From NCBI GenBank assembly GCA_951406725.2, contig OX597835.1, forward strand, positions 49,910,001 through 49,974,000: a stretch of DNA of 64,000 nt, read 5' to 3'. Position 1 is the first letter of the stretch. Every line of letters begins with the position of its first letter. This document shows, piece after piece, positions 11,996-35,962 of the stretch. The notes below the pieces were generated by a model. The model ran no database searches and had not been told where the DNA came from. It saw only the letters and a program-made list of their open reading frames with translations. The DNA comes from Octopus vulgaris (taxonomy: Eukaryota). The position numbers and the translations under genes are program-made.

Positions 11996-12189
11996 TTAAG
12001 AGAATCGGTTCCGGTGCGTTAACACTGTTACCCCAACAACAAAAGCAGTGACAACAACTGGACCAATGATGAGAGAATGGTTGAAAACTGCTTTTCTTAT
12101 TCGAACCAAGTACGATTTTATACTGTTTCCCAAACTCTTAATGATACCGGGCTTAGCCTGCGCTGCTGGTTCATCGTTGACAAGCGGAG
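11996..12189 (-). CDS. Orphan gene A, terminal coding exon (C-terminal hydrophobic anchor)
   Basis: Polypyrimidine acceptor TTTCTTTTTCCAG; phase 1; (A)PLVNDEPAAQAKPGIIKSLGNSIKSYLVRIRKAVFNHSLIIGPVVVTAFVVGVTVLTHRNRFS*. Confidence 0.75.
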
Positions 12190-13060
12190 CTGGAAAAAGA
12201 AATGGAAAAAGAGACATTGAACATGGATCACAACAAGAAATGAGGCAACAATCAAAACAGAAAACCAAATTGGATTAGATACACTTTCACTACTTACAGA
12301 AAAGGGCCAAGTTACAATTGCCAGGAGGCCAAACTGCTGCCAACCATGCCCATCACTAAGGGTGTGCACTGGACAGTACTGCTCCCCACACTCCTCCCTA
12401 TTCAATGGTGTCCCCTCAGATTTACAGTGATACACTTATTTCGAAACTCCACTTTAGCAGTATTACAAATTAATGCCCTCCGAATATTCTGAAGCATCTC
12501 CAGGCACCAAAGAATGGTAACAGGCCTGCAACATCACCTTCTCCAGGTAGTCTTGGGAGTTCCATGCCTAGTGATATGCAAAGACGTAATGAGACTGACA
12601 TTGGACAACACCCAAGGAACTCAGCCTCTGTCCTACAAACAGTTTTAGATTTCCCATTGTTATATACTCTCTTTTAACCCAATGAGAAAAACTATGTGGT
12701 TGTTCAACCTGCTAGAAATAGCAGCTGCCTTCAAATAATACTCACTCATAAAGAAAAATTTAAGAAAACAAAGACATAAACTTGGCATTATTTTTAAAAA
12801 TGGAACCCTTTTGTTACCATATTTCTGTTGAGATGTTCTGTGTTTATTTCACTTTTAAAAATAACAAAGAATTTAATAAAATAACTTTTTAAGTTTGTGT
12901 TAGGAACATAAATTACAACTAAGATTTGGTGGAATATTTTAATTCTATTTGAAAACAAGACATTTGTACAAGAGAGTCAGAGACAAGTGAGAGGTAGGTT
13001 GGTACCAAAAGGGTTAAAGAACATAAACAAGGGCAAGCGTCACAAGTGGAACACATTTGG

Positions 13061-13166
13061 TCAAACTTTTATTCACTCAGCCATAACCAAGGCTCAAACG
13101 TTTATTCACTCAGCCATAACCAACGCTCAAACGTTTATTCACTCAGCCGTAACCAAGGCTCAAACG
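13061..13166. repeat. 33-bp tandem repeat, about 3.2 copies
   Basis: Unit TCAAACGTTTATTCACTCAGCCATAACCAAGGC. Confidence 0.9.
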
Positions 13167-13459
13167 ACAATGACTTTCATTGCTTTAGTTTTTCTCAGCC
13201 TTTCTCTCTCTTTCTTTCTCTCTTTATCTCCTCTCTCTCTCTCTCTCTCATACTTATTTCTGATGTTCCTTACATTTTTATGGTATTCTATTGCTTTTTT
13301 GTGTATGGGGGGGGGAGTATATTTAATCAGTGAGTGAAGGGCAATACTTCATGGCCCTTTATTTTTCAGGACCTCTAAGACTAGTAGAGAGGAAAGGAGA
13401 AAGTTATCCTCATCTGTGTTGCATACTGAGACCATTGAGGTTCCAACTCTTACAACACA

Positions 13460-14150
13460 CCCGCCTCTTCATCCAGGTGATCCAACATAGGTTGATCAAG
13501 CCCAGGCCTCTGTCCAAAGCAACATTCTTCTGACCCCCACCAATCACCTCTTTTCAGCCAGAGCCACCTTGATGCTTTCTCTGTAGCTTTCATGTTATTT
13601 TCAACAGTTCTTCTTTTCTGCTTTTTCTTGGACAGGAGGCTCCACAGGTATGGCGGAAGCAAAGTGCCAGGAACAGGAACAGGTGAAGGTGGGCAGCTGA
13701 GAATCTGCAGATTGTTTCCTTTCTTCAGAAACCAAGAAAAGACTTCAAGAGGACAGTGTGTATCTGATGGAAAAGCTCAACAGCCTGTCTCAGACATCTT
13801 TCATTGCTGAGTCACATGCTGTAGAAAGCAAACCATTGCAGCCTTTTTTGAGTCTCTCCTTCACAAAGATGATCGTCCTGGCTGTAATGCGACCATTTTG
13901 TAGTGTAAATGATCTTTTTGTTAATAGCTTCAACAATAGTCTTAAGGACTTGGTCAAGTCCCTGGTGATAGTGTCCTTCACCTACTAAGGGAGCATGCAA
14001 GTGTTTGCACTATACTCCATATGAATTGGTCGGATGGGTTGGGGAGGACAGCATACAGCCCCTAAATGAAGAACTTGACCCACTCACACATGCCCTGCTA
14101 CATGACATGCAACTTAATCACCTGGTCTTGTGTTGTCACTCAAGTTTCAT
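13460..14150 (-). mobile_element. HERO-like (restriction-like endonuclease) non-LTR retrotransposon remnant
   Basis: DQVLKTIVEAI, RTIIFVK and ATEKASRWLWLKRGD motifs, followed by GGGCTTGATCAACC..GGATCACCTGG 3' UTR, match my recollection of HERO-clade C-termini. Confidence 0.65.
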
Positions 14151-14199
14151 GCCAATGCAATGGTGGCATAAAAGATTTTAAACTTTTAAGAGAAAAACA

Positions 14200-14598
14200 G
14201 AGGCGCAGGAGTGGCTGTGGGGTAAGTAGTCTGCTTACCAACCACATGGTTCTGGGTTCAGTCCCACTGCGTGGCACCTTGGGCAAGTATCTTCTACTAT
14301 AGCCTTGGGCTGACCAAAGCCTTGTGAGTGGATTTGGTAGACAGAAACTGAAAGAAGCCCGTCGTATATGTGTATATATATGTATGTGTGTGTGTATATG
14401 CTTGTGTGTTTGTGCCCGCAACATCGCTTGACAACCGATGCTGGTGTGTTTATGTCCCCGTAACTTAGCAGTTCGGCAAAAGAGACCAATAGAATACATA
14501 CTAGGCTTACAAAGAATAAGTCCTGTGGTCAATTTGCTCGACTAAAGGCGGTGCTCCAGCGTGGCCACAGTCAAATGACTGAAAGAAGTAAAAGAGTA
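14200..14598 (+). mobile_element. SINE family A copy
   Basis: Same head, core and tail as 9223-9648, opposite orientation. Confidence 0.85.
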
Positions 14599-16333
14599 AT
14601 GTGAAGTAATTATTTTTGGAACAGTGGATCTGTTCCAAACATCAGCTCGGGGCAATTCCCTGGCCTGCCAGCTTCTGTCAAACAGTTCAGCCTATGCCAG
14701 CATTGAAATCAGATGCTAAATAATGATGATGATGATGATGATATACATAGATATACAGGGGGGGGGGGGGGCCAAAAGTAGGTTTACAGTTATTCAACTC
14801 TTTCGTATTCATATATTAACAGTTTAGATCTTAATCTGGACATGTGTGTGATGAAGGGGACAGGAAGAAAGCAATAGACTAGGGCGGAGGGGAATCACTG
14901 AAAGAGAGATGTGGGGTGTCATTGGGGTTGGTCAGCAAAGGGAAAGATGAGAAGCAGAGGGGAGAGGGTAATGAAGGAAAGTAAGGTGGGTGGGGGCAAG
15001 AAGGAAACACTGGAGGGTACCACAAAGAAGAAAGAATAAGAGCAGAGTGTAAATGCCCTGACATACACAAGGCCTGAAATTTTGGGGCCAGTCAATTGGA
15101 TCAACCCCAGTATGCAACTGGTACTTAATTTACTAACCCCGAAAGGATGACAGGCAAAGTTGACCTCAGTGGAATTTGAACACAGAACATAAAGACAGGC
15201 GAAATACCGCTAAGCATTTCAGCCGGTGTGCTAACATTTCTTCCAGCTCACAGCTTTACACACAATATTAGCAGAATCCAAAACAACCCAACCCACTGCC
15301 TAGGAATTGAATAGAAACCATTAAATTCACATGTGAAAATAACAGGATTTGGTCAGGAACTGACATTAGCAAGCAGCAGCTAATTATCCCATTAGCATTT
15401 AAACTGACCCAAATATTCTGCTTGTTTTATGTTCAGGTCAGATAGATCTGGCTTCTCACACCTAACCTACAATGTCAGCTTAAAACTAAATCTCAAAGCT
15501 ATGAGATAACACTTGCTAAATTCAAAACAATGTGAATAAATAAGCATTTCATTGGACAGACTAATAGGAATTCTAAATGGTCAAGTCTTTGATAGACATG
15601 TTAAGAACTTCTTTTTACCAGCAAAAAACCACACAGACCTGACAGATGCTTAACTTGTCAGCATCCCAATTGCAAACAACATATTGAAATGTCATTAACA
15701 ACTTTGTCTTTGGCACCCTTTCTTTGATAGACCATTAGGTAGTTATAGATTGTAAAGCCAACTTGATGTTGGAACTTACACCACTCAACTTCAGCTGTGG
15801 AATCCAATGCCTTCAACAATCTGTAATTATTGCTGAGAGACACATCTCACACAAATTGACTCAGTGTAAATAGCTTTCATTATTGAAATGATAGTATTTC
15901 TTTTTATTAACCATAAATGAAAGTGCATGGATTAGTAGTTAGGGGTATTTGGCTGATAATCATAAGGTTGTGAGTTCGATTCCAGGCAGCTTGTTGTTCC
16001 TTTGAGCAAGACATTTTACTTTGCATTGCTCTGGTCCACTTCACTGGCAAAAATGAGTGGTACTTGTAATTCGAAGGGGTCAGCCTTGTCACATTCCGTG
16101 TCATTGCTGAACTTCCCTGAGAACTACGTCTGTGAAGTACTCAGCCACTTACACACTAATTTCATGAGCAGGCTGTTCCATTGATGGATCAGCCAGAGAC
16201 CTTCATCATCGTAACTGAACGACGGCTGACACTAACCATAAACATTTCCATATTTGGACTTCTCTCAGATTTCTGTCTTTCTCTCAACTGACAAAATCTT
16301 TTGCCCTGACCTGCATACGTAACTATAACAAAC

Positions 16334-16538
16334 CTGATGCGTTCTGGTTGGTGTCGAGCCTGATGATGTTGATGTCTGGAGTTGATGCTGTTAATGCTGC
16401 TGCTGCTGCTGCTGCTGGTGCTGCTGCTGCTGGTGATGATGATGATGGCAATAATGATGAAGCTGCTGTATCATGAGCCGTGAGAAGGTAGAATGTAGAC
16501 ATAAATAAACTGAGAAACAATACTGTGTGGAACTTCAT
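16334..16538 (-). CDS. Orphan gene A, first coding exon (signal peptide plus Ser/Ala-rich stalk); exon starts at 16611 with 5' UTR
   Basis: Acceptor TTTTCCCATTTCAG at 16612-16613; ATG 16538; MKFHTVLFLSLFMSTFYLLTAHDTAASSLLPSSSSPAAAAPAAAAAALTASTPDINIIRLDTNQNAS+G; donor GTTTGT; phase 1 matches the 12189 exon, giving 132 aa. Confidence 0.75.
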
Positions 16539-17159
16539 ATTTGTTCTTCTTCTTACTGTTGTGGCTCTTGCTGTTGTTGTTGTTGTTGCTCTAGATGTTG
16601 GTGTGTTCTATCTGAAATGGGAAAGGAGCAAAACCATTAATTGGATTCAAAAACAAACAAAAAATATAAATGTGCAGTTGCCCCTCGGTTGCCATGGTTT
16701 CCCTTTTAGAACGGATCTGGCTTTTGCCATATTAAAAAGACTTTTCCTTCTTTCTAATTTCTTTTAATTTTATTTAAATTATTTGATTTGTAGTTTATTT
16801 CTACAGAATTACCATTTCATCATTTCCGTTTCACTCTTTATATTGTCTTCTTATTTCACTCGGATAGTGATGAGTGATGAGTGACCACTTCATATACTTC
16901 GTAAATCAAGTTTCCACATTGAATAATAGAGTTTCAAATATCAAAGCTGATTTTAGAAATAATCTTCAGCTTCAAAATGGAAAAATGTCCTAAAAAAACT
17001 ACAAAAAGTTTATTGTAAAGAAAATGACTTATTCCAGTTTGCATGCAGTTTAAGGATTCGAAAAGAAAGTAAATTAACTGCAAAGGAAGGTAGATGGATC
17101 CCACAATTCCAGAAAGAGGATGAGTGAAATCCTTTAATTTTATTAACAGAACTTTCCTT

Positions 17160-17520
17160 ATGCCGTGTCTACAAGCAGCCTCCAGGTTTGTGAGCCTCTG
17201 TGGATTCTTTTGGTCTGCACCCATTGTTAGGCTGCCTTCCATGCCATACCACTCGAAACAAAATCATAAAGCATGGCATACACAGTACAAACTTCCCTTC
17301 CCAGTTCAACCCAAGGTGACAGTAAAAGTTCTTACAGTATGACAATTTTCCTGTTCCAAGGTGGTAGGCCCCTCATATGGGATGTCACACGCTGCGATAC
17401 CTTCTCCAGCAGCAACCAGGTGCGTTCAGCCACCAGCTAGGCTCCACTGCTTGTCAGGTTTATGGTCAAGCCTATGGCAGTGGAGACCTATGACATTCTT
17501 GGCTCCCAGAACATAACCCT
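17160..17520 (+). mobile_element. Remnant of a CRE/NeSL-like restriction-like-endonuclease retrotransposon
   Basis: MTIFLFQGGRPLIWDVTRCDTF..FMVKPMAVETY resembles the RPDG..W..G..LVWDVT..F.P.AVET motif. Confidence 0.5.
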
Positions 17521-18438
17521 GCTCCCCGTCATTGGGGTGGAGATGGCTATCTGCAAGTGTGAGCCCTGTTTGACAGATCCAGCACATCTCCCTCGCCATC
17601 TTCTGGGGTTAGGGTTAGGGTTTTGTCTGCTGGTACCATGAGATGGTGTGAATTACAGGTTGACAGATGAGATACAAATAATAATGGTAGCACTTCAGAA
17701 ATAGTAGCTGTCCCAGTGTCCCAGCAATGAACACCACTAAAAGAGCAATTCATTGGCTTGCACAGTGGCACATGATAACCAACACAAATTACCATATTTT
17801 CACAAGTATAAAGAACCTTCGTGTATAAGGAACCCCCTAATTTTGGAAAAAGGTTTTGTAATATTATCCATGTCTAAGAAAGTTCCATATTTTAACCTAA
17901 TTTTTGACAAAAAAGGGTTCCTTATACACGTTAAAATATGGTATATGTAAGCAGTGAATTATTCCTGCACGTCTATTAACCAATACAGAAAGAACTGATG
18001 GGAAGTGGTGGTGGTGTTCCTGTCGATTCACTAAAAATAGTAGTTTCATGATATTATCGGCAACTGCATACAAAGATTATTTTAGGCCCATAGACTCAGA
18101 TGTGCCCCGAGCAACTGCCCAATGTTGCCCATGCTTTTGTATTTTTTTTTTCTGAGACCTTAGGACTCATAACCATAGTGCATAATAGATCATGATCCCA
18201 ACACTCTCTTTGAAAGGAACGTTGATCCGTGGCAGGGTTCAAGGTCATAAATGTTGGAAGTTGATTACATCAAACCCTACTTGACAAGTACTTTATTTTG
18301 TCGACTGCAGAAGGATGAATGGTAAAGCTAACCTCGGTAGTACTTCAACTCAGAACAGAAAGAGTTACAGAACATTTTGTCTGATGTGCTAACAATTCTG
18401 ACAACTGCCATCCATGCTCAAGATGGCACTATGTAAAC

Positions 18439-18712
18439 CAGTGGTTCTCAACCATTTTTTTGGTGGGGGGGGGTCTGTGGACCTCTTTCATTCCTATTTT
18501 ACTCTACTGGATCTCCAGAGCCATTCAATGTATTAAAAAAATCCTACTGTATTTTTATAATCAAATATTATTAGGAATTGTATCTAAAAAAATCGTTAAA
18601 AAGTCTTTTGTGTATTGTAAGAGTTTTACCAATTTATTGCAGATAAAGTTTAACAACAAAAGCTTATCTGGGGCCCCAAGAGTTGTTATGCAAACCTCCG
18701 TTCACAACCCCC
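18439..18712 (+). mobile_element. hAT-type MITE copy
   Basis: Begins CAGTGGTTCTCAACC; colinear with 62217-62470; decayed right end. Confidence 0.7.
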
Positions 18713-19897
18713 TCATATTGACCATCACGAAGCTTTCCTCTCTGAACATGTCTGACTATTCACCAAACGCATTCGTTCATTACAGTATATCGTTTAACAA
18801 ATAATTACTTAATTAAAACAACGAAAGACATTTAATAGAATACTTTCAATACCAATAATTGGTGTAAATATCCCGAAGGAATTAATTCATTGCAATTAGA
18901 TCAATGCTGTTAATTATGATTTCCTCTTCGATTCTTACAGGCGTTTCCTTGTGTTTCAACCGTTTCTTCAATACGTAAACAACTTCGAAACTTATGAGTT
19001 TAACAGTAAAAGATTAAAAATTCGTTCAACTTCATTTGTTACCGGATAAAGCCGACTTTTAACTGACATCGGATGAAATAGCACACGATATCTCTTCTCA
19101 CCTACTTACATTCTGAGCTGAAGTCTTGTCCCATTTCCGAAGAAGAAAAGAAAGTGGGCCGAGACATTTCTGTTAGGCTTTGCAACCAACTGGACTGATG
19201 TCTGTAATTTGAAATAATCATAGATTTCGATTTCTCTGGGGTTTTTTAAATATTTATTTAATCAGAGAGGACGGCGCCCAATAGTAAATTTTGGGTGAAA
19301 CAGTAGAAATTGGGGAGGGGGACAAAAATGTAAAAAAATTAAGTTCTTGGGGAATAAAAAAAAATCTTTCACAGAAGGAAACAACTACCCAATTCCTTGG
19401 GGCAGGGATAGTTATTCCGAAGTCCGTCAATCAGAGTTTGAAGACAGAAGCTCCAATATTGATGAGAGGAAACGGCAAAATTATCCTCAAAGACACCAAA
19501 GATGGTTAGTGTTAAACTGGACGACGGATGAAGGCCACCACCCGACAAAACGGGAAAGACAGTTTTTATCTCTCTCTTAAAAAAAAAAAAGAGAAGTTAT
19601 ACTAAAACGCCATTGATCATACGTATTTGGTCTGACCTAGGGCTAAACCAATAACAAAAAGAAAACAATTTTGAATTATTTCAAAAGAAGTACAAATACA
19701 TTATAATCACAAATTGAAAGTGGTAAAATAGAAATTACCATAAACAATCGGTTTTGAAATTTAAAAATAAAACATATTTTGGAAAAAAAAAATTTTTAAT
19801 TTAAAATTTTTTAAAATGTTTATTCATGAACACACACACACACACACACCTATGTGTGTAGACGTATAGTTTGTGTACATTATACATACATACATAC

Positions 19898-19937
<40 letters not shown>

Positions 19938-20069
19938 GATTATTTTCACGAAGTTAGCTAAAGTGTAAATTCATTTTAAAAAATCTGTCTTTAGTAAATA
20001 TTAAAAAAATATTTACATAAATATAAAAATAAATTACTCTGTTTTTATCAGAACATTTAATGAACTTAC

Positions 20070-20270
20070 CTCAGCTTATTGTAAAATATTGTTTGAGAAA
20101 GGTGTTTAAAGTTCGAATTATCACAGAAGATAAAGGTTATATTTTCAAAATAACTTTCGTAATTTTTAAAGCTTTGTTAAAAATCGAAAGATTTTTTGCA
20201 ACCTTCTCTGTTTTGGGGGAATTTTTTTTGTTTTTTTTTTTTGTTTTATGGAGTTTCTGAGATAGAAACC
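20070..20270 (-). other. Predicted non-coding first exon of orphan gene A (5' boundary approximate)
   Basis: Donor GCTGAG|GTAAGTT; local similarity to the equivalent region of gene B at 35721. Confidence 0.5.
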
Positions 20271-20294
20271 TGCGTTTGGTGCGATTTCTTATTG

Positions 20295-20326
20295 TGACGT
20301 AGTTTTTTGATATTTCATGACGTCAT
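20295..20326. promoter_or_regulatory. Paired CRE-type sites upstream of gene A
   Basis: TGACGTAG at 20295-20302 and palindrome ATGACGTCAT at 20317-20326. Confidence 0.5.
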
Positions 20327-20763
20327 ATTCTCTTTTGGCAGCAGCAGCAGCATTTTCTGAATTCTTAATTTCAATTCTCTTAATTTTGTTCCAATTCATT
20401 TCAAACTTGGTGCATCGGTGTGCTTTTGTAAGCCAATTATGGAAAGAAAATTCGTTTTTGCCATAGATTAATGAATAAAAAGGGAATAATTTTTAAAATC
20501 TGCATATTTTGGGTAATTTTAGCAGAAAATGTCAGCTTCCAAATCCTGTATTCTAATTGGGTTGAAATAATCACATTTTAAACTTCTGTGACATTTTTCT
20601 AAAATTTTTCTGAAACAAAGGAATAACAAAACTCAGCGAGAAAAATTACATGAGTTTACCACATTTGGAAATTTTCACTTAATTTTAAAATTTCAAAAAC
20701 TGAGTCTAACAGAAAAAATCCAATTGTGATAACAGAGAGGGGGGGGGCAGCGATGGTGGTAGC

Positions 20764-20803
<40 letters not shown>

Positions 20804-21503
20804 TTGATGATAGTGGTAATGAGTGTATTTATGTGTGTGTGTGTATTTGTGCTTCTCTGTGTTGATAGATTTGTGCGTGTGTGTGCAGGTCCGTGAGTGT
20901 GTCGTTTTCTATGTGCATATGTATGTGAGTGTATATGCGCTTACTCGTTTATGTAGGTGTAGCGAACAGCTATAGTATGGCTAAGCTGAAATTCGAAACC
21001 AAACCCACATTTTTATACATTGTCAAACAATTCCTCGGTCTCTTCTCGTAGCCTTATTGCACTCAGAGATTAATGAGAAAAAGTTGACCTCTTGATCTTT
21101 CTCGTGGTCAGTTCTGATTAAGGACGAAGAACCCTGTTGTTTTAGCTGACCTTATTCAGTAACCAGAAAGTTCTAAAAAAAAAACTTTTTTTAAACTCAA
21201 GCAAACAGCTATCTTCCTCTCCTTGGTCTCTGGACTGAAAGCAACTCTGTCACCATGTAATAATGTGTGCGGAGGTAAACCTCTTTTTCCCGCTAACTAC
21301 AAACGTTCCTTTTCCTATGTCTTTCTCTCTAGCAGCCGCAGGGAATCTAATCTAACATATTCAATGAACCATGGAACCAGAAACAAATTTCTCCAGTATC
21401 TACAAACAAGATGTGTATACACAAATAAATAACTCGATAAAGCAGTAAATTTATTATATATTGTAACGACTAATATTACAATTATCTTCAACATAATAAC
21501 TGA

Positions 21504-23310
21504 CGAGGGTGGGCTGGAAAGTTCTTAGGCTGACGAAGAAGGAGTGTGAAATCATGCATGCATTCATTTCAACTCTTCTTGTTAATACTTGCATCGTTTC
21601 TTTCCAGGTCAACTGACATCTGACGGTTCAAAGAAGACTTCAAAAGTAGCGACTCCTCTTGCAAATCGACAAAATGTGGCATCGTGCTCTTATCAAATAC
21701 TTGCAGGAAAAAGGGTTTAGCCCCTAACAACATTCATACTGACATGGTACCTACATTAGGGAATAACGATCCAGCTTCATCAACAGTGCAAAAGTGGGCA
21801 GATGAATTTAGGAGGGCAAGGAGAGTCTTGATAATAACCCCAGGTTTTGATGTCCTGCAACTGCCACCAAGAGGAAAACATTGATCGTGTTCACCGCTGA
21901 TGGATGACAGGCCATTGACTATAAATCAAATCAAAAAGCCAATGTTGTTAGCATATTTTGTGAGGGAATTGAGAATATTCTGCACAATGAACTAGGATCG
22001 ACGAAGGTTTCTGCTCAGTGGGGGTCACGTTTTCTGACACCCGATCAAAAGCACACTAGGCTGACCACATCACAGGAATATATGACAGCTTTAAGTAGAT
22101 CCAGCTGGTTTCTTTGAATGTATAGAGAGAATGTTGGTAAAGGGTCACCACTTTAGTGAATGTGTTCATAGTGAGGTCCTCTAAGTGGTCTTTTGAGAAG
22201 CGTGTGTAATGAAAATATCAGAAGGTATTTTTATGCAAAATACTTTTATTTATCAAAGGATAACGAGAGCTGACAAGTAATATGAGCGTAGCCAGTGTAT
22301 GTGCGTGAGTCAGAGAAAGCTTTATGAGTAACGTTTGAAAAATGGATTCAGTTGGAAGTCGTTATAAGCTAACAGAGCTGGCGTAACGAAAACACACAGC
22401 TCATGGTATGGCCAGAGTTGTGGGCTGATGTCATTCAGAGCTAGCGGCGCAAAGTTGAAAAACAAAGGGTCTGTTCCCATGCTTGACAATTGATGTTGCT
22501 GGACTGCTGTCTCTTTGCTAACCGGTTAAAACGCCCACTTAACTCTTCTTGGGCAGAGAACTGCTTTTCGGTATTAATACGCACCCAGCCCTGATTGGTT
22601 GAGTTGCCATAGTGCGACTGTTGTACAACGGGATACTAAAAATAGCTTTTCTAACTCTCCACAGATGTTTCCGAACCCAGGACGAGTGTCTGGCTTTCAT
22701 CACTTTGAGCCAGAGACAACGAGACAATCCATGCAGTGGAAACACCTCTTCTCGTCTATTCCAAAGAAGGTTAAGATTGTTTCTTCTGCAAGGAAACTGA
22801 CGACCTCAGTCTTTTGGGATATGCAAAAGGCATTGTATTTATTGACGATCTTGCAAAGAGCCACTCTCTCAATGGAGAGTACTATGCCAACCTGCTGAGG
22901 TAGTTATGAAAGGCTGTCAAGAATAAATGCGCAGGAAAATTGACGAAAGGGGTCTTGTTTCATAAGGACAATCCTCCAGCACTCAAGTCCTTCAATACAA
23001 TGGGTGCTGTGCACGACTGTGGCTTTGAACTGGTTGATCACCCTCCCTATTCTCCTAATTTGACCTCATCAGATTATCATCTGTTCCCCAACATGAAAGA
23101 ACTCTTTGCTGGGAACCAATATCACAGTGACGATGACGTTGTGTCTGCTGATCAACAGCATGATGGCTTGTTCACCAATGGGATCCAATCATTGAAACCC
23201 TGGTAGAAGTGTGCGGACCACACGGGGGACTATGTTGGAAAATAAAACTCAAATCGTTACATTTTGTGAGAGTATCTTGGTCAGCCTATGAACTTTCCAG
23301 CCGACCCTCG
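21504..23310 (+). mobile_element. Full-length decayed mariner element
   Basis: TIRs CGAGGGTGGGCTGGAAAGTTCTTAGGCTGAC / GTCAGCCTATGAACTTTCCAGCCGACCCTCG|TA; transposase pieces TQDE..HHFEPET..QSMQWKH, GVLFHKDNPP, HPPYSPNLTSSDYHLF; frameshifted and interrupted. Confidence 0.9.
22121..22663. mobile_element. Solo-LTR-like insertion inside the mariner
   Basis: Ends TATAGAGAG...CTCTCCACA (inverted, two transitions from TGTGGAGAG), flanked by AATG/GATG; removal restores FFECFRTQDEC. Confidence 0.65.
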
Positions 23311-24056: not shown

Positions 24057-26620
24057 AATTCAATTCAATTCAATTTTATTGGTTCAAAAAGCAAAAGCAA
24101 GGCCATGTAGGGGGACAGGGAGGGTGATCATACAAAGAGTTCAGGCCATTTCTGGTCAAGAGAGACTTTGAACAAAGCGGTCGTCGGCATCTTCACTATC
24201 TCGTCCGGCAGCTTATTCCACTGATCCGCAACCCGGACGGAGAAAGCCCCTCTCCTTCAATAGAGATGAAATCGTCGTAGATAGAGCTTTTTGGAGTGAC
24301 CCCGCAGCCCACACTCTGGAGCAGGAGTGAAGAACAGCTCTTTCGAGAGGTTACACTTTCCGCTTATGATGTTGTGAGCGAGAATGAGATCACCACGGCG
24401 TCGTCGTTTTTCGAGAGAATAAAGGTCGAGCGTCTTCAGCCTTTCTTCATAAGACAAATGCTTGAGACCAAGAACCATGCGGGTAGCCAGCTTCTGGACT
24501 CTTTCGAGATGATGTATGTCTTTGAGGAGATAAGAAGAAGAGGCTTGAATCCCGTACTCCAATATGGGTCTCACCAGCATGACATAGAGCGGTAGGAATA
24601 TGGCTGCTGTGAGCATTCCTAATGACCGTCGAATCAAAAACAGAACTCCGCGTGCTTTATTGGCAGCATGGACGCATTTGGCCGAAGGCGAAAAGGAAGA
24701 ATCCACCAAGATACCCAGGTCCTTTACTTGGTCGGTCTTCTCCAGCAGCAGACGACCCGGCTCGAAATCAAGTTGAGTTGCAGGAGAGGAGTCAACAGGC
24801 AGATGACAGCACTTTGACACGTTCAGACACAGGTCCCATTCGTTTGACCATCTCCAAACTTGGTGGAGGCATCGACGAAGATCATCTATATCACTGCGAG
24901 GAGCGACCAGTTTGACATCGTCGGCAAATAGAAGGGAGTGTTGCGTGAGGTCGTCGGGCAAGTCATTGATGAAGACTAAAAACAATAACGGCCCAAGCAC
25001 TGAACCTTGAGGCACGCCACTGCTCGCACTGGAGACGGCGGACTGCGAACCATTAACTTGGACTTGGAAGGAGCGATCTGAGAGGAAGGCACCAACCCAT
25101 CGTACAATATCCGGATGGAAACGATATGCTTGAAGCTTGAAAAGTAATAAGCGGTGGTTAACCGAGTCAAAAGCTTTGGCAAAGTCCAATAAAACAATGT
25201 CAACAGCATCACCATCATTCAGGATACGCGTCACCAATTCTTTCATTACCAGTAAGTTGGTCAAGCATGATCTCTTCGGCACAAAGCCGTGTTGGGAATC
25301 AGAGATAGAGGCTGTGTTTTGGAGGTGAAGCAACATACTTTTCTTGAGGATGGTTTCGAACATCTTGCTGATTATTGAAGTAAGGGAAACCGGTCGGTAG
25401 TTAAGCAGGTCTTCGTGGCTCCCTTTCTTGAAAATCGGGCAGATAATCGCTGTTCTCCAGTCCGCAGGTACAACACTCGTCGCCAATGACATATTGAATA
25501 GAAGTGTTAAAGGCTCGCAGATGACCGGAGCCAACGCTTTGATAACTTGTGGGTGTATGCCGTCAGGGCCGTGACCCTTGTTGACATCGAGGCCTTGAAT
25601 AACGCGTTCGACTTCGTCCCGAGTGATGACCAATCTAGGCATTGGAGGTACCGATTGTTGTTGTTATATATATATAATGTATTGAGTATTAAAGGAAGTA
25701 GTGAGTACTTAGTATGAAAGATTAAGAAAATGAGAGAGACTGAAACAACGTGTTAACGATACAAGATACTTTATTCGACTGCCGTTGTTGTACAAGTTAA
25801 TTGTTTTGGCGGGAAACAAAGTGAAAGTCCTTTTATCAAGGGAGACAATGGGCGACGTTGATTGTTCATGTTTGTTGTGATGATTATATAACACCGATCT
25901 ATCAAATGGAGGGGGTTCACGACCATCATCTTGTTTGAAAATTGTCGAAAAAGCCTCGGCAAATAACTGACTCTGCTGATAAGGGTCCTCAATCGATACG
26001 CCTGTTGAGTCTACCAACGTTGCAATTTGGTTGTTCAAGCGGGAATTCCGTCGGACATGGGCAAAGGTTTTTGGATTGCGACTGGCGTTTGCCGCGATTC
26101 TGCATTTATATCTGAAGCGTTCTTCCTTTTCAATTTTCACGGCTCGGTCTCGTTGAGTTTTGTATACCACAAAAGCTGCAGTCGAATCTTGATTTTCTAA
26201 TTCAGCCCAAGCAATATCTCTGAGTCGAATTTCTCGTTTAACCTTCTTCGTCACCCAGGGCTTGTGTTTCTTCTTCTTGGGAAGCCCAACGGGAACTGCT
26301 TGGTCAGTCAACCAGATTACATATGCTTTGAGGGACGACCATAGTTCGTCAACTGAGGACATCGTCATCAGGGATCGCCAGTCCAGAAGCGCAGAATCTT
26401 CGGTTAGAATTTCAAGATTGATTGCAGAGAAGACTCTACGTGGCAGCGAAGTAGTTGTGGGCGCAGAAAAAGTTGTGTGCATGACGAACTTCAGGACCGC
26501 CTGATCACTCTTGGCAAGAGGGGCGCACATAGATAAGCCTGACACTGATCTTGGATAGCGGGAGAATACCAGATCCAGCATAGATGACTGCTGCCCAGAC
26601 CGATGCCTTGTCGATGTTGC
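24057..26620 (-). mobile_element. CR1/L2-group LINE, 5'-truncated, nearly intact ORF2
   Basis: 461-aa ORF with GPDGIHP, NYRPVSLTS, QHGF, LDFAKAFD, GVPQGSVLGP and FADD RT motifs; upstream LDLVF endonuclease end; (ATTGA)n tail with AATAAA at the left end. Confidence 0.95.
25656..25893 (-). mobile_element. 238-bp solo-LTR-like insertion in the LINE ORF
   Basis: Perfect 5-bp TSD CCGAT (25651-55 and 25894-98); ends TGTT..TATA / TATATAACA; AATAAA on minus near 25770. Confidence 0.8.
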
Positions 26621-27695
26621 GATAGTTACTGGTATAGCGATTTCAGATTACCTCCCATTCAGATTAAACCCCGGTAACTTGAAATCGCTTTCAGATTATC
26701 CCCGGGGTAATTTGAATTCGATTTCAAGTTACCCCCCTACGGTTCCAGATTACCTCCACCTCAAATCCTTCCCAATCCTTAAATGTTCATCACAGTGATA
26801 GCAAATAGGGAGATAATGGGTGAACCCATCACATGTATGTATTGATGTTTATTACGTGTGGGTGCGTAATGTACATTCGTAAATGAAAGAGAAAGTAAGA
26901 AAGAAATAAAAGAGAAAGTAAGAAAGAAACGAAAGAGAAAGTAAGAAAGAAACGAAAGAGAAAAGCATAGCTTTCATTTAGTTGGCGTTTTCACTTAGTT
27001 ACTTAGAGCTGAAGAAATCTGAAAGAAGTCTATCCCGAGTGGCTATTTTTAGTACACAAGACAAAGATGACAACATTGATTTGATATTTGATTATGTTGT
27101 TAGCAACAAATATGGAGCTCATGTGTCCAAAAAGGAAAAGAGAAAGCAAGTAGAGTTATGACTTGCACTCGAGAGCAAACCAAACAACCAGATATGAGAA
27201 TGCGGCAAATATGCAATGGACTGGCGGTGGTATGAAAGGGTAGATGTGTAGTAAATAGTTTAATAAAGGGTGGATATGTAATAGGGTAGAGGTAATGTGA
27301 TAGTGTAATGGTGTTATAACAATTGGATTCCTTTCACGTTTTGCCACCTAAATAACAACATCAACACGAAAAGAAAACAACTTTATTTTCTTCAAAACTG
27401 TTTTGTTATTTTTTCCGATTTTCTTTAGTTATTTCCAAGATACTTTTACGAAAACAAAGTTTCCAAAACAATTTGTCTTAAGAACATTTAGAATATCTTG
27501 GTTATCGGCAAAAAAAAAAAAAAATAAATAAATGAATAGCGAAAGGTTTATTTAGAATCTAAAAATGAACAGAAGTTCTTTAAACTTCCCACTTTCAATT
27601 ATTTGTTTCTATAAAGCTTGTTTCCAGTTTATTCTTCCTTTTAAACTCTGTATTTCCTGAACCAGTTTTTGTTTTTTCTTCGACTTAAGCAAGAA

Positions 27696-28051
27696 TTAAA
27701 AATAGGATGACATCTGTAGCCCAGTGACAACAACAACAAACAATACGTATATAGAAGGGAAAATTAAGGAAGCGTTGCCCGGAGTAGCACAGGACTTTAT
27801 ATACTGGACGAATTTTGCAAACATCGTCTCTTTGTCTTCTTTTTCAGCCGTCGTCATGTTTTCTCCGTGCTTTCTATCAACCGTATTTTTGATGTCGCCC
27901 TTTACTATCGTCATGTCTTCTTTGACGTTCTCAAATATCGTCTCTTCAACATCATTGTTAAGCAACATCGGTTTCACTTCGTCTTGCAGTAGTGAAACAG
28001 TTGCTTTTGGTGGGATTATTGCGTAGCTAGAATTATCACAATTCATCGAAT
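27696..28051 (-). CDS. Orphan gene B, terminal coding exon
   Basis: Acceptor TTTTTCTTATCTCTCTTCAG; phase 1; (D)SMNCDNSS..acidic stalk..FAKFVQYIKSCATPGNASLIFPSIYVLFVVVVTGLQMSSYF*. Confidence 0.8.
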
Positions 28052-28862
28052 CTGAAGAGAGATAAGAAAAAAGGTTTATTTTAGATGAAGTATGGATGCT
28101 GGCAATATCGATGAGCTCTACAATAAGTAACAAACTATACGGAAAGCTAAATAATTAACTTGGTGGTTTCATTTGAAGCCGCCATGTAAACGTATGGACC
28201 AGTGGGGACAGACACATGCCCGTCTCTAAAGGGATGCACTAGGCGACACTGACCCCTCCCTACGATTCAATGGTGCATCCTCAGATTCAGAAAATACAGT
28301 TTACAAAAATCTTCCCGTAATACGTTTCTTGAAGTCTCGCTTACTTTTCTCCTTATACCAGGACGAAAAATAATTGTTATAATGATAAACCAGATGAACC
28401 AAAGAGACTGGTCAAAAATTCTCCAAGGAAATAAGGGAAGAAGTGATACCGAATGAAAGAAGAAAAAGCAAAAACGAAAAACGTCAACACACACACACAA
28501 TAGACTTGCTGTAATCATTTGGGATAGAGAAGAGAAACTGTGGCACAGTTGTGGAAATGAGCTGCTGCCCAGTGGATGTTAACATAAAGCTGATGATCAG
28601 TGGAAAAGAGAATACCGACGCTGAACAACTGAGAAATCTGCAGTTACTCTAGCCAGATTACAAGCTCAGGTTTATGCCTGTAATTATTGGGAAGCTGGGA
28701 TATATGTAACACTCTGCCTAAATACCAATCTTGAGAAATTAAGCTTCTCAAAACCAGAAAAAGAGAAAGCTGATTCGAAGACGACAGATCCAAGCCATCA
28801 CTTATATATTTATCATTTAAATATGTAAGAGCATGTCTAGATATGCGAGTATATGCATGAGA

Positions 28863-28901
<39 letters not shown>

Positions 28902-29137
28902 GAAATTATTGTATACAGTGCTCAGGTGCACCACAACTTGTCAGAAAGTGCATATAAAGTACATGCAGTAGTGTAGAAATGTCTGGAAAGTGAACATGCT
29001 TGTGTGTGTATGGAGGGGAGAAAATCAAGTGTAGTGTTGGCGAATCTCAGGAAGCATGGAAGTTTTGAAGGATATATATAAAACAAAACATAAATCTGCC
29101 CGTATACAAACATACATACATACATACATACATACAT

Positions 29138-29170
<33 letters not shown>

Positions 29171-29257
29171 TACATACATACATACATACATACATACATA
29201 CATACATACATACATACATACATACATACCCTGTTGTTGATGTTGAAATTCCAATTA

Positions 29258-29330
29258 AGGAGCCAATATCATGGAGAATCCTAGAAAATCCAGGCCCTAC
29301 ATAAACGGGACTAAGCGTTGTAAACTGTAG
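29258..29330 (+). mobile_element. Penelope-like GIY-YIG C-terminal remnant
   Basis: With one frameshift reads ISWRILE(K)SRPYINGTKRCKL, like the I.W.IL....PY....KRC.LC motif. Confidence 0.45.
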
Positions 29331-29626
29331 CGGAATGGGCGAGGATACGAAAGGACTCTCTCGACCCAGGAACATTCTTAACTCCAGAACGGAACTTTTT
29401 GCTGGCTTACTGGAACCCACAAAATAATAGGGTCCCTTACGATCGATAGCCGAAGGGAGACAATCCCCTGTTGTTGACATTGAGTAGCGAGGTTACTTCC
29501 TCATCCATTTTCTAGAGAGGCCATAAGCCAATAGGTTTGGGATCTGATCATATGCCGTAAAGCTAAGCGCTTTATGAACGTGAAACCCAGGGTAGTCCCA
29601 TAGACCGGCCTTATCTAACTTTATTG

Positions 29627-29662
<36 letters not shown>

Positions 29663-29856
29663 AACCACACATGCTTTACTTGGGACTTTTTTCCTTCTCT
29701 CCGGATCATGCCTCTCTCCTCCTTCTGACGAAGAGCCATGCACGAAACGTTACACACCCCACATTTTTTTCCATCTTAAACTGAGCGTAAACCTAATACA
29801 TTTACCGTGTGCATCTTTTTTGTTGTTTTCGCTTTTATTTTTATAATCGATTCGCC

Positions 29857-29897
<41 letters not shown>

Positions 29898-30540
29898 GCA
29901 CGCTGCAAATTTTGCCGTGCACCTTATATTGGAAAAACCGTCTATCATGTTGCCGATCCCTTTTGCAGCCCCCTATAACGTATGTCACCTCCCACTTCAA
30001 CGCAACGAACCCTTCCGTTAACCATTGATCAGTGTGTGGGAGCGTCTCTGTACATCATAGGACCACACACACACACACACACACACACACGGGTAAACGG
30101 AAGGAACAATGTATCATATTCAAACTCGGAACCACGGTGTTGCTGGGTTTCAATCAATGTTTTCCCTTCTGCTACTCTTTCACCACACTTTCATTCAATA
30201 ATCCAATTTTTTATCCTTCAGTTTATCTCTCACCGCATTTCCACCCCACCCACTTCTCTTCTTTTCATTTCTTTTTCCTTCTTCTTCATCTCTCATCTAG
30301 TTTCTCTTTCTAATCTCCCAATAATTTCTGTCTTGATTTCCGCATCACTTGCAGCCAATTGTTTAAAAAATCGTCGATGTAACTCTGCAGCCCTTTTCTC
30401 CACCCCACCTTTCCCCCCTTCTTATAATTTCAATCTTAGAAAGGATACTGTCCGAAACGTTGCATACGCCAATCTTCACAGCAATTTCACGGCACTCTTT
30501 CGGTCACTTTTTCCCCAAATCTAACCAAATTACAACATAC

Positions 30541-30655
30541 CTAATGCGCCCATATTGATGGTTAGATCCTTTGATTCTGTTACTGGATCCTGAGCCGCAA
30601 CAAAGTGAAGAATTGTAACGCATTGCAAAAGAAACATCAAGGAACGGTTTTTCAT
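30541..30655 (-). CDS. Orphan gene B, first coding exon (signal peptide); exon starts at 30736 with 5' UTR
   Basis: Acceptor TTTTTCATTTAAG at 30737-38; ATG 30655 (AAAATG); MKNRSLMFLLQCVTILHFVAAQDPVTESKDLTINMGAL+G; donor GTATGT; phase 1 joins 28051, giving 156 aa. Confidence 0.8.
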
Positions 30656-30823
30656 TTTTGATTTCGTAACGTCTTTCTTCTTCTCGTTATTGGTGTTGAT
30701 CTTATCGTTGCTGTCGTCTTCACTCGGAGTTTGTATCTTAAATGAAAAACAAAACAAGATAAACAAATCAAACATTATTAATTGACTCAAACGAAAAAAG
30801 TGGAAGAGATGACAGTTAAACAA

Positions 30824-30901
<78 letters not shown>

Positions 30902-30999
30902 CGTGTGTGTTTCGGCAGCGTAGCGACGGATACGACCAAGTATAAATAAATAAAAAAGAAGGGAGTAAGAAACGAAAGTGACAAGTTGATATCATGGTG

Positions 31000-31579
31000 T
31001 ATATAAGTTGTGCGAGTCTGTTTTGGCGATCTCTTTTAATATTTTGATCGTTTTTTTTTAATTACCTGCTCATTTCAGTACCTTTTATAAGCTCCTTAAT
31101 TGTCATAATAATTTTACTTGTTTCACCGTTACTTAGCCTGTCCGTAACGCTTCCATGCGATTAGTTGAAGGAGTAGGGAGGGAAGAGGGAGGTGATGGGA
31201 GGTGGGGAGGAGAGGTGGTGGTGAGTGAAATGTGTTATTTTTTTTTTAACTAAGTATTTTTACTCTGTTACTTAGCCTGTCTGTTATGCTTTCATGTAAT
31301 TAGTTGAAGGGAAAGATGAAGAGCAAAAGAAAAAAGAGAGAAAAAAGAGGGAGAGTGTTGTATATTAAGTCTATAAAATTGTGCATAAAGTATATAAAGT
31401 TCATTGAGTGATCATTGTATTCCAATTTTCTTCACATTTCAATGAATAGCGCAAATGAACGACTCTCTTTTGATACAGACATAACACAGGCTACACTTTC
31501 AGGCTTTTGGGATAAAGTTTTCAGACGCAGCCCAATGAGTTTACCATTAATTCTGTGAAATATTCACAGGTCCCGCTAG
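31000..31579 (+). mobile_element. Possible non-autonomous Helitron 3' portion (5' boundary uncertain)
   Basis: Hairpin CTGTGAA-ATA-TTCACAG (31553-69) followed by CTAG|T; internal duplication of TTACTTAGCCTGTC..TTAGTTGAAGG. Confidence 0.45.
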
Positions 31580-31743: not shown

Positions 31744-31816
<73 letters not shown>

Positions 31817-33838: not shown

Positions 33839-33922
33839 TTGTGAGAGACCTCCTACTCTTTGTGAGAGACCTCCTACTCTTTGTGAGAGACCTCCTACTC
33901 TTTGTGAGAGACCTCCTACTCT
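33839..33922. repeat. 21-bp tandem repeat, 4 copies
   Basis: Unit TTGTGAGAGACCTCCTACTCT. Confidence 0.95.
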
Positions 33923-34679
33923 CTGTTTAGAAATCTCTCTTCAAGAGAAAAGTTTAAAAAACAAAACAAAAAACACTCGTCTCATTGCGAAGCCGCGGAT
34001 ATTTACTCTTGCTTGTTTCTGGACTATTTCACTTTGCAGATGAGTCTTAGCGATGCTGGACCTGTTGTACCTGTTGTACCTGTTGTATTGACTTCAAATT
34101 TCAGCACCGGCCGAGCTGACGACCATCGTCTTTAACATCTACAATAATTTCTATCACAGCATTACACGTTGTGAGAACGACTCAGGCTTTCGAATCCTGC
34201 CAGCGACTTTGCCAGAATTTGTTGTAGCTTTGACATTCATCCGAATTCTCTGACTGCTTGGTTGTTCCGGATTATTCTGATAATGTTCTCTGTGCACCCT
34301 CATCTACCTAGATAATCCAGAATGATTTACAGATGCTTTCTAGTGGAAAGTGCATTTGTGTTTGGCCCCCAAAATAAAGTCGTTGTAATTTGTAACAGGT
34401 CTTTCTGAGTGATTTCTGTGGTGTTTCACTAGACTTTCGCGACACACACACACTGCCCAGTCTTCTCCTTGGCCATCGTCGACAATGACAGGCGAGCTTA
34501 TGTATATATGTATGTATATAGTCATTAGGCAAGTTGAATGCATTTACATAAATACATACATATGTGTATATATACAAAGTCCACTCAAAAAGTGAATACA
34601 CACTTGTCTGAATAACTGAATAAATTTAGTATCAAAATATTTCTACGTTTTCCTTTTCTTGTAGTTTATATATATATAC

Positions 34680-34713
<34 letters not shown>

Positions 34714-35720
34714 ATAGATGTTGGCTTCAATTCCTTGACCGGGTGGTGCGTGGTGTTCTCGAGCAAAACACTTCATGTTACTCTGCGATCCCTTCCGACA
34801 CCTGACGCGTGGCACACCGTGCACCTGTTCAAGCAATGTCCATTGGATGGAGTGGGGAGGGAGCCAATGTGCGGGACATGCCACTTTCATACCGGGTATC
34901 CAACTTTCCTCCAGTTTGGTAGGGGACAAGCGTTATACTTCACTTTCCACACTCTACTTCGACTGGGAACCTGAATCTATTGAAAAGAGTTTTCTATACT
35001 GGAAACGTTGAGTTTAGTTTTCGGGAATCGTAACCCAGCGAAGATAACCTATCTGCAGATTTTCAAACTAGAGGCTTGAGTAGTCAACTGCCTTGTATTG
35101 AAGACATTTCACACTATCCTTATCCGTTAACACGATGGGAAAACTCGAATCGTTCCTCAAAATGTTTCCGAACGCCTAAGGAAGTCTAGCTTTTGCATCG
35201 ACATTTATAAGTCTCAGACACAACCTATATCTCAACAGGAAAACCAGCCTACCAATCGGATCCCTGAAAGATTTACCTGGATATTCATCTCTTTCCAAAA
35301 CAACACAGGTCACCTCATTCGATATGGTTTGACGACGTTGTGGTCAATTAGACATTCAAACGCATCGGTTTCGTCTGCTTTTGCTTCGTTAATGGCTATT
35401 AATCTGAGGTTGCTGACTCGAAGTCATACAGCAACTCACCTGACCCTGCTTCTATTTGAACCCCAGTCCATATGCATCTCATTCTCAACCAATTTTACCT
35501 ATGCCCCCACCACCACCATAACATACATGTATGAAAACATCGGCTAAAAGAACCGTTCCTTTTGGCACGAAGTCCCAGAGAAAAGTTCTCTGCCCGTGTG
35601 ACAGACACTCCTTTCTCATTGTCAGAAATGGTGTGAAACAAGGTTTTGCGCGTTGGAATCCTTTAACCAACGGCGCTTCATTTACATAAAATAAAATAAA
35701 ATTAATAGAAATCAACTTAC

Positions 35721-35915
35721 TTCAGCGAATGGGAAATATTTTCTTAGAAAAAAATTACTATGATTGAAAGTTGCAAAACATTAAAATGTATTATTTGTTT
35801 TTTAATATTCTTCCGTAATTTTTTAAAACTTGGTTAAAAAAAATGAAAGAATTTTTTCAATCTACTTTTATGAAGTTTCGAACTGGAATAAAATAAAAGG
35901 AAATTTTTTAAACGC
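35721..35915 (-). other. Predicted non-coding first exon of orphan gene B (5' boundary approximate)
   Basis: Donor GCTGAA|GTAAGTT; similar to the gene A region at 20070. Confidence 0.5.
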
Positions 35916-35942
35916 GGCGTTTTTTTTTTTGACATTTCATTG

Positions 35943-35962
35943 TGACGTCATTGATTACGTCA
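35943..35962. promoter_or_regulatory. Paired CRE-type sites upstream of gene B
   Basis: TGACGTCA at 35943-50 and TTACGTCA at 35955-62. Confidence 0.5.

Follow-up and report, generated by a model that had tools for sequence, protein, structure and literature searches.

CD24 and CD52 are small GPI glycoproteins with a signal peptide, a variable, domain-free middle, and a C-terminal anchor signal. Neuritin (CPG15), a protein of about 140 amino acids, carries a signal peptide and a GPI signal, is CRE regulated, and has a conserved multicysteine fold. Tetherin-like proteins are doubly anchored, with an uncleaved N-terminal transmembrane (TM) segment, a coiled-coil ectodomain, and a GPI anchor. A further comparison is obimac0019980, an Octopus-specific gene published as a marker of immature octopus neurons (Songco-Casey et al., PMC9815951). 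[quoted passage not shown]

We analyzed a 64,000-nucleotide stretch of Octopus vulgaris contig OX597835.1 (here, the window) that contains two minus-strand genes, A and B. Their products have the CD24/CD52 plan of signal peptide, domain-free middle, and C-terminal anchor signal, but the predicted mature parts (about 85 to 110 amino acids) are far longer than those of CD24 or CD52, and the tail of A is basic. None of the six proteins searched matched a CD24 or CD52 profile in Pfam at E ≤ 0.1. Neuritin differs from the pair, since A has no cysteine, B has one conserved cysteine, and neither has a Pfam match. FAM174-like proteins (PF06679) also combine a signal peptide, a low-complexity ectodomain, and one TM segment; that candidate was rejected, as it scored 14.7 bits (E = 0.044; cutoff, 27.7 bits) in only one of six proteins, P0006, and A ends 7 residues past its TM segment, without the FAM174-like cytoplasmic part.

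Gene structure, splicing, and existing annotation

An earlier sequence-only reading had proposed two three-exon genes, and their exon structure was confirmed. All four predicted introns (A, 3458 and 4144 nt; B, 4984 and 2489 nt) have GT..AG ends at the positions it gave, and inspection of the sequence places the coding intron of each gene in phase 1. The products have the lengths proposed, 132 amino acids for A (ATG at 16538, TAA at 11998-11996) and 156 for B (ATG at 30655, TAA at 27698-27696).

Splicing was read from contigs of four runs, presumed by guess to be RNA, over 20 kb of the window. Three of the four introns, all inside these 20 kb, are bridged by such contigs. The A junction 16334>12189 is seen in all four runs, and 20070>16611 is bridged in at least one (X1) among the matches listed, where record 1 runs unbroken over 20298-20070, 16611-16461, and 12189-11531, i.e., all three A exons. 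The B junction 30541>28051 is bridged by record 12 of run X4, which links 30736-30541 with 28051-27719 and has 149 further, unplaced letters upstream of 30736.

Exon 1 of A (20070..20298, minus strand, as are all features below) is noncoding, contains no ATG, and has its 5′ end set by the limit of the X1 contig. Sequence and contigs place in exon 2 (16334..16611) a 73-nt untranslated region (UTR), the ATG, the signal peptide, and a Ser/Ala/Pro-rich stretch built of GCA/TCA triplets (22 of 68 codons). Contigs and a structural model place in exon 3 (11531..12189) a basic amphipathic helix (amino acids 83 to 104), a hydrophobic segment (108 to 125), a basic tail of 7 residues, the stop codon, and a 3′ UTR with AATAAA at 11634.

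In B, a noncoding exon 1a (35721..35941, 5′ end provisional) is predicted from homology to A exon 1 and its donor site; this homology and the 149 unplaced letters lend indirect support to the candidate junction 35721>30736. Exon 2 (30541..30736, from sequence and contigs) has an 81-nt open leader, the ATG, and a signal peptide at amino acids 1 to 21. Exon 3 (27360..28051, from contigs and sequence, 3′ end provisional) encodes an acidic ectodomain that contains an internal repeat, now degenerate, an amphipathic helix (amino acids 114 to 126), and an invariant, uncharged C-terminal stretch of 28 residues, followed by the stop codon and a 3′ UTR whose AATAAA at 27387 is in register with that of A. 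An alternative exon 1b, supported by sequence and annotated isoforms, ends in four codons (35277..35288) and a GT donor; it is in frame with exon 2 and would give a 187-residue form with a hydrophilic N-terminal extension of 31 residues. The same start occurs in O. bimaculoides isoform X1 (P0007) and in O. vulgaris CAI9739164.1. When this annotated form was compared with the tetherin-like dual anchor, the low-confidence model lacked a long coiled coil.

The genes had been called unrecognised. That holds for their domains, none being recognisable, but not for their existence, because RefSeq and GenBank models are already present; they are thus annotated but uncharacterised rather than undiscovered. 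The database entries, named uncharacterised or hypothetical, are LOC118767532 and LOC118767561 (O. sinensis), LOC106878720 and LOC106878719 (O. bimaculoides, which carries orthologues of both), and CAI9739163.1 and CAI9739164.1 (O. vulgaris). A is identical, letter for letter, to CAI9739163.1, and B matches LOC118767561 at 153 of 156 residues. CAI9739164.1 leaves B exon 3 early and splices into A exon 1, with loss of the anchor, and the contigs disagree with it. The B model of the sequence-only reading is the better one, agreeing with both the O. sinensis RefSeq entry and the contigs. A literature search with six gene and protein identifiers and six further accessions returned no mention, several supplementary tables lying outside its range; identifiers sharing a prefix with them belong to other genes in the published papers examined.

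Paralogy and candidate promoter motifs

Paired CRE-like motifs lie at the apparent transcription start of A (20294..20325, with a perfect TGACGTCA at 20318-20325) and upstream of B (35942..35962, with a perfect TGACGTCA at 35943-35950), and their promoter function is putative. The paired pattern was found in 0 of 100 shuffles, a figure that overstates the case, since the pattern was fitted after both sites had been seen. Single CRE motifs number 3 versus 0.67 expected, a count reached in 5 of 100 shuffles. CREB/ATF-type factors would drive A and B through the paired motifs.

Judged from their sequences, A and B are tandem paralogues of one duplicated gene, a relationship that is clear in DNA and weak in protein. 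The sequence-only reading had argued for it from aligned C termini; the DNA bears it out, while the protein alignment of the C termini is marginal when taken by itself, its score being reached by 62 of 5000 shuffles. blastp found no match between A and B at E < 10, and hhalign gave a probability of 1.6%, confined to the signal peptide. By comparison, the 3′ UTRs align above all 300 of 300 shuffles (z = 13.9) and agree in 175 of 286 aligned columns. The two genes are also alike in exon 1 (z = 6.6), the exon 2 UTR (z = 4.5), and the exon 2 coding sequence (z = 4.2), and intron interiors are not (z = −0.8 to 0.9), with the exception of the sequence adjoining the first donor. Paralogy is thus read from the 3′ UTR, exon 1, the homologous phase-1 intron, and the paired CRE-like motifs rather than from the protein alignment. 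After duplication, the ectodomains would have diverged by triplet-repeat expansion in A exon 2 and internal duplication in B exon 3. Neither tblastn nor blastn found further paralogues within the 64-kb window.

Taxonomic range and selection

The proposal of a diverged, lineage-restricted pair with signal peptides and C-terminal anchors is supported, a cell surface location being predicted. Searches of 1.84 billion proteins, of Pfam, and of PDB found no relatives beyond three Octopus species and one further record. P0009 (E = 5e-24) was rejected as a relative; it is a tandem repeat of 1218 residues, and its score adds up 13 weak stretches that fall on the signal peptide part. A metagenome scan gave 107 pattern matches, with 0 confirmed; a PDB sequence search with alignment A1 gave a best E of 0.65; Foldseek with the low-confidence A model gave 0 matches at E ≤ 0.001; and in the ESM Atlas, A had no usable feature match and all B matches were below 0.9. 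Of the neighbors named earlier, SMARCAD1 is supported on the right (best PDB match, 9jao_C, E = 2.4e-27, with Fun30/Fft3 next), while the EXD2 label on the left is unconfirmed, with no match.

Selection was assessed by comparing the window with O. bimaculoides and counting changes against an assumed neutral divergence. The anchor ends are unchanged in both proteins (28 of 28 residues in B, 27 of 27 in A). B amino acids 129 to 156 show 0 changes in 28 residues where 4.2 to 6.4 are expected under neutrality (P = 0.010 to 0.001), and A amino acids 69 to 132 show 3 in 64 where 9.7 to 14.8 are expected (P ≤ 0.007). On these counts, both anchor ends are under purifying selection. The last 28 residues of B are invariant in all four sequences, including P0004, in which only 39 of 71 ectodomain residues are kept. 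The conserved ends could also be mere processing signals, which would count against the explanation preferred below.

The B ectodomain (amino acids 22 to 128) appears to evolve at a roughly neutral rate, with 27 changes in 107 residues versus 25.8 expected at a divergence of 0.12, a value based on an autosomal dS of 0.123 (PMC10925132). A lower divergence figure, about 8%, has also been reported (PMC6472339); at 0.07 to 0.077, change in the ectodomain exceeds the neutral rate (P about 0.008), a pattern that would suggest a binding surface under selection. Positive selection on B is not claimed, as the outcome hangs on the neutral rate assumed. The A ectodomain is not fast evolving (39 of 45 residues kept), so that a role as passive spacer fits it less well.

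The UTR blocks being the clearest homology between A and B, the RNA might be the conserved element and the proteins by-products; the A 3′ UTR also differs at only 11 of 357 letters in X8, versus about 7% in flanking noncoding rows. Against this, no reading frame is broken in the three named species, where indels preserve the frame, and the C termini show purifying selection. UTR structure is not unusual (z = 0.79 and −0.12), and there is no Rfam match. The RNA-only reading is largely refuted, and we consider it very improbable.

Protein anatomy and membrane anchors

Signal peptides and topology were assigned from hydropathy and sequence pattern. In B, hydrophobic residues 5 to 21 follow basic residues, and 20 of the 21 signal peptide residues are kept between P0001 and P0002. 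In the A protein of the window, the hydrophobic moment peaks at amino acids 84 to 101 (0.58); P0001 and P0004 peak at the homologous stretch, and P0002 peaks elsewhere, at amino acids 76 to 94. AlphaFold places helices at the high-moment stretch and at both protein ends with low confidence (pLDDT, 38.9 and 52.5), so the apparent disorder may be no more than a product of alignments with three sequences.

The cationic character of A amino acids 84 to 101, which follow a Pro/Ala-rich stretch and include one RK pair, would suit a membrane-tethered precursor from which the basic helix (amino acids 83 to 104) is released as an antimicrobial, venom-like, or signaling peptide. Contig depth over A also varies by thousands from run to run (3 to 24 versus over 12,000), depth being a poor measure of expression. 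We regard release as quite improbable, because the RK lies inside the helix, with neither a flanking dibasic pair nor an amidation Gly, and the homologous helix of B is not cationic. Most defense peptides vary between species, unlike the A helix, which is unchanged across three. The O. bimaculoides identifiers had no match in 9 supplementary files from a study of octopod venom.

The anchors of A and B probably differ, to judge from hydropathy and residue patterns, B being GPI-like and A a single-pass protein whose tail is basic. B lacks charged residues beyond K124 and has a 17-residue hydrophobic run. The GPI pattern consists of a small omega residue, a non-Pro omega+1, and a small omega+2 (PMC10491789); B shows it at G130-N131-A132 and N131-A132-S133, invariant in four of four sequences, and S125 and C126 are also possible. 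A spacer of 8 to 12 hydrophilic residues, then 15 to 20 hydrophobic ones and no charged tail, is also expected; the uncharged end and hydrophobic run of B agree with this, but the sequence from N131 is already hydrophobic and from S125 the spacer has only 6 residues. A departs from the same rule, since its hydrophobic run begins 3 residues after N105 and is followed by Arg128 and Arg130. Its features are those of a predicted type I single-pass protein, with a signal peptide, a single TM segment (the Kyte-Doolittle maximum over 19 residues is 2.43, at amino acids 108 to 126; the segment is short, 18 residues), and positive charges on the C-terminal side.

TM segments this short favor early secretory compartments, and at 17 to 18 residues those of A and B might mark small proteins that span the membrane once and reside in the ER, the Golgi, or secretory vesicles, such as accessory subunits or cargo adaptors, rather than surface proteins. 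Invariant C-terminal tails are also expected of sorting signals. A KKxx motif is absent, though, as is homology to any secretory pathway component, and disordered, sequon-bearing ectodomains like these are commoner among surface proteins; we hold this placement to be rather unlikely.

A stronger contender, though still unlikely, is that both proteins are GPI-anchored glycopeptides resembling CD24 and CD52, whose ends serve only for export and anchoring and whose variable, glycosylated ectodomain would be the part that acts in cell recognition, perhaps on immature neurons. The aligned N-x-S-L-I motif is kept in both paralogues just upstream of the hydrophobic segment, its sole change, A N105 to S in P0006, being permitted at omega though the sequon is lost. 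The hydrophobicity is borderline, the best 17-mer scoring about 0 to +0.6, and the B N-glycan sequons at 45 and 131 are kept in three of three orthologues. In feature space, the neighbors of B are C1orf54, LLCFC1, and CD24 clusters at 0.78 to 0.82 (CD24, 0.78), below the bar, and obimac0019980 is described with similar anatomy. Against such a role for A are the two Arg residues after its hydrophobic segment, the stretch before N105, which is helical and basic where a polar linker would be expected, and the lack of a hydrophilic spacer; charged helix residues lower GPI transfer (PMC10491789). The same paper describes GPI signals as lacking a sequence consensus, yet the last 28 residues of B are invariant in four of four sequences. 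There is also no CD24 or CD52 sequence match in Pfam.

Discussion

The explanation that we prefer, tentatively and at somewhat less than an even chance, is that A and B are small exported Octopus proteins whose conserved helix and anchor act at the predicted cell surface, the middle, predicted to be disordered, serving as a loose spacer. Under this explanation, B is likely GPI anchored and A single-pass, as their C-terminal residues suggest. The leader would be cleaved after residue 21. B would be cut near G130/N131 and receive a GPI anchor, or else stay single-pass, and A would stop transfer at its Arg-containing tail. The amphipathic helix would then lie on the outer leaflet or pack against another membrane protein as its partner, and would thereby modulate adhesion, a receptor, or a channel.

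B resembles obimac0019980 in anatomy and E value, the comparison being with the description in PMC9815951 and not with its sequence, and a search for an identifier mapping between the two found none. The E value given there against the O. sinensis orthologue is about 3e-88; for the pair of B orthologues, E ranges from 4e-90 to 6e-86 with the size of the database, and the A pair, at about e-47, does not fit. It is tempting to suppose that B is obimac0019980 and that the pair forms a CREB-driven, octopus-born surface family that took up a CD24/neuritin role by convergence, with a second promoter yielding the extended B; we consider this combination distinctly unlikely. If it were true, the second promoter would make an N-terminally extended, possibly doubly anchored B. 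If B did prove to be the marker of immature neurons, young neurons could be sorted by a protein on their surface, and one could test whether surface proteins specific to a lineage contribute to building the octopus brain. Failing that, A and B are an ordinary annotated pair of orphan membrane proteins.

Octopus genomes hold many taxon-restricted genes, few of which have been dissected, and a corrected gene model for O. vulgaris B is gained here. The pair shows how a family can diverge past recognition at the protein level, while its ancestry is still visible in UTRs, intron position, and promoter motifs.

Structure and annotation of genes A and B

The minus-strand genes A and B are a real, annotated yet undescribed, octopus-restricted paralogue pair. 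Their proposed three-exon plan held on recomputation: GT..AG ends and polypyrimidine tracts are present at each of the four predicted introns, the spliced frames (132 aa from the ATG at 16538 for A, 156 aa from the ATG at 30655 for B) each close with a TAA stop, and the coding-region intron is phase 1 in both. Splicing was checked with contigs of four sequencing runs, presumed to be RNA, against positions 11500 to 31400. The 12189/16334 joint of A is present in all four runs, and record positions of X1 record 1 are consecutive over 20298-20070, 16611-16461, and 12189-11531, so that this record carries all three A exons and the 20070/16611 junction. Exon 2 of B is joined to exon 3, as predicted, in record 12 of run X4, which extends 149 letters upstream of exon 2, beyond the stretch compared; a loose end of run X8 at 28055 goes on into exon 2-like sequence.

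An alternative first exon of B (minus strand, four codons and then a GT donor, ending at 35277) reads in frame into exon 2; the resulting 187-aa protein corresponds to Octopus bimaculoides isoform X1. The GenBank model CAI9739164.1 starts from this exon, splices out of exon 3 from a donor inside it (near 27804), and lands in exon 1 of A near 20173, with loss of the B anchor. This B-to-A join is an annotation error or a minor read-through, because both X4 record 12 and X8 record 24 cross the donor unspliced.

Homologues in octopuses

Homology searches retrieved orthologues of A in O. sinensis (LOC118767532), O. bimaculoides (LOC106878720), and O. vulgaris (CAI9739163.1, identical to A of the window), and of B in O. 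sinensis (LOC118767561, 156 aa, differing from B of the window at 3 positions), O. bimaculoides (LOC106878719; X2, 156 aa; X1, 188 aa), and O. vulgaris (CAI9739164.1), along with one Logan record, P0004, related to B. Accession numbers of A and B are adjacent in O. bimaculoides and in O. vulgaris. Every model is named “uncharacterized” or “hypothetical”; the genes called unrecognised in the sequence-only reading are undescribed but already annotated in all three species. No relatives above threshold were found in Pfam, PDB sequences, Foldseek (with the model of A), or the ESM Atlas. A six-sequence profile had four matches among 1.84 billion representatives; three belong to the family, and the fourth, a tandem repeat, was rejected as spurious. 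A second profile search (8,000 candidates scored) recovered the six input sequences alone, although at these database sizes an orthologue from squid or cuttlefish could escape if short and diverged. The suggested lineage restriction stands in these searches, with members in the three Octopus species and P0004.

A literature search, including the readable supplements, found no mention of the A and B identifiers. According to the accessible text of Songco-Casey et al. (PMC9815951), the octopus-specific gene obimac0019980 marks all nine immature-neuron clusters and encodes a mostly disordered protein with a signal peptide, a TM-like segment, and two helices, with an O. sinensis orthologue at an E value of about 3e-88 and a weak Sepia match. 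The orthologue pair of B scores 4e-90 to 6e-86, depending on database size, and that of A about e-47. The anatomy and E value are compatible with B, but this comparison by description identifies nothing, and a link between B and the marker is doubtful.

Paralogy of A and B

At the protein level the two are barely a match. Blastp between them found none, hhalign gave a probability of 1.6%, and the whole-protein score of the pair P0008/P0001 was reached by 73 of 2,000 shuffles (1, 12, and 124 for three other pairs). The C-terminal alignment on which relatedness had been proposed is marginal (62 of 5,000 shuffles); the relatedness itself is borne out in DNA, where the case for paralogy is strong. 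The 3′ UTRs (z 13.9; 61% identity across 286 columns, AATAAA in register) and exon 1 taken together with the sequence upstream of it (z 6.6) each beat 300/300 shuffles, and these blocks have no other match of comparable length within the window. Scores are lower for the exon 2 leader (z 4.5) and coding part (z 4.2) and weak for the exon 3 coding sequence (z 1.4; 2.4 for the last 120 nt), while three of four pairs of intron ends align no better than chance. Since O. bimaculoides has both genes, the duplication is older than that species split, placed at 13 to 34 million years from O. sinensis in the available part of PMC10925132.

Each apparent start site has two CRE-like motifs. Perfect TGACGTCA sites number three in the window (0.67 expected; a count reached in 5 of 100 shuffles), two of them at these starts; the pattern of paired motifs was fitted post hoc.

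Across the coding end and 3′ UTR of A (11670-12026, minus strand), X8 differs at about 3% of positions, whereas non-coding rows close by reach about 7%; together with the UTR still being alignable with that of B, this suggests regulatory elements. No unusual RNA fold was seen in this stretch, and a function of A and B in RNA only is highly improbable.

Genomic neighborhood

Pfam and PDB comparison confirmed the right neighbor as SMARCAD1-like; a 140-nt 28S rRNA fragment lies inside its region (54174-54313, minus strand). The EXD2 label on the left neighbor found no such support at its probable coding exon (556-719, minus strand). Downstream of A are a tRNA-Glu (TTC) gene (10221-10293, minus strand) and a CpG-rich stretch (about 10986-11120, minus strand) that closes with a good donor, CTG|GTAAG, and may be a non-coding exon 1 belonging to the gene that follows on the left. 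About 1 kb below the B stop lies a LINE (24257-26647, minus strand) whose reverse-transcriptase frame (PF00078) is 468 aa long. X8 record 24 joins 27262 directly to 23800, and X8 depth over the LINE is almost nil, so the element may be a young insertion in the transcribed region downstream of B. The same record passes over 21744-23576. An apparent transposon remnant at about 21560-23310 (plus strand), without a Pfam match, we take from resemblance to be mariner-like.

Protein anatomy, selection, and anchoring

Both proteins have an architecture of a familiar kind, with a predicted signal peptide, a domain-free middle, and a predicted C-terminal anchor: a 21-residue hydrophobic leader and, after the middle, an amphipathic helix and a hydrophobic segment of 17 to 18 residues (structure models are of low confidence). 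GCA/TCA triplets make up the middle of A (22 of 68 exon 2 codons), and that of B holds a degenerate 15-nt internal repeat with one mismatch. That such proteins are tethered peptide precursors seems quite unlikely; residence in the secretory pathway is unlikely too.

Compared with its O. bimaculoides orthologue, B has changed at 2/21 leader residues, 27/107 residues from 22 to 128, and 0/28 C-terminal residues (middle versus ends, Fisher P 0.0015), and A at 3/64 exon 3 residues. Neutral simulation predicts 4.2 to 6.4 changes for the B C terminus and 9.7 to 14.8 for A exon 3; both are therefore under purifying selection. For the B middle it predicts 17.1 at a divergence of 0.077 (P 0.008) and 25.8 at 0.12 (P 0.43). 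Published values, from the portions available, of about 8% genome-wide (PMC6472339) and an autosomal dS of 0.123 (PMC10925132) bracket this range, so the B ectodomain is close to unconstrained, possibly faster; positive selection is not claimed.

The proposed C-terminal anchoring fits the hydrophobic segment in both proteins, but the predicted anchors probably differ. By the GPI omega-site pattern in the accessible part of PMC10491789, B has candidates at G130/N131 or S125/C126, with an atypical spacer, and its last 32 residues are uncharged; B is likely GPI-anchored. In A, N105 aligns with the B candidate and is S in O. bimaculoides, the polar spacer is absent, and the hydrophobic run is followed by two Arg, which suits stop-transfer; A is likely a single-pass membrane protein. 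The full invariance of the last 28 residues of B in all four sequences exceeds what a GPI signal needs, and the segment may persist as a working helix. That both are CD24-like GPI glycopeptides is conceivable, if rather less than probable.

Everything past gene structure, homology, and conservation we infer. We tentatively favor a CRE-driven pair of surface proteins: the CRE motifs would drive expression of A and B, the conserved helix and anchor on the membrane side would interact with the membrane or with a protein partner, and the middle region would serve as a spacer.
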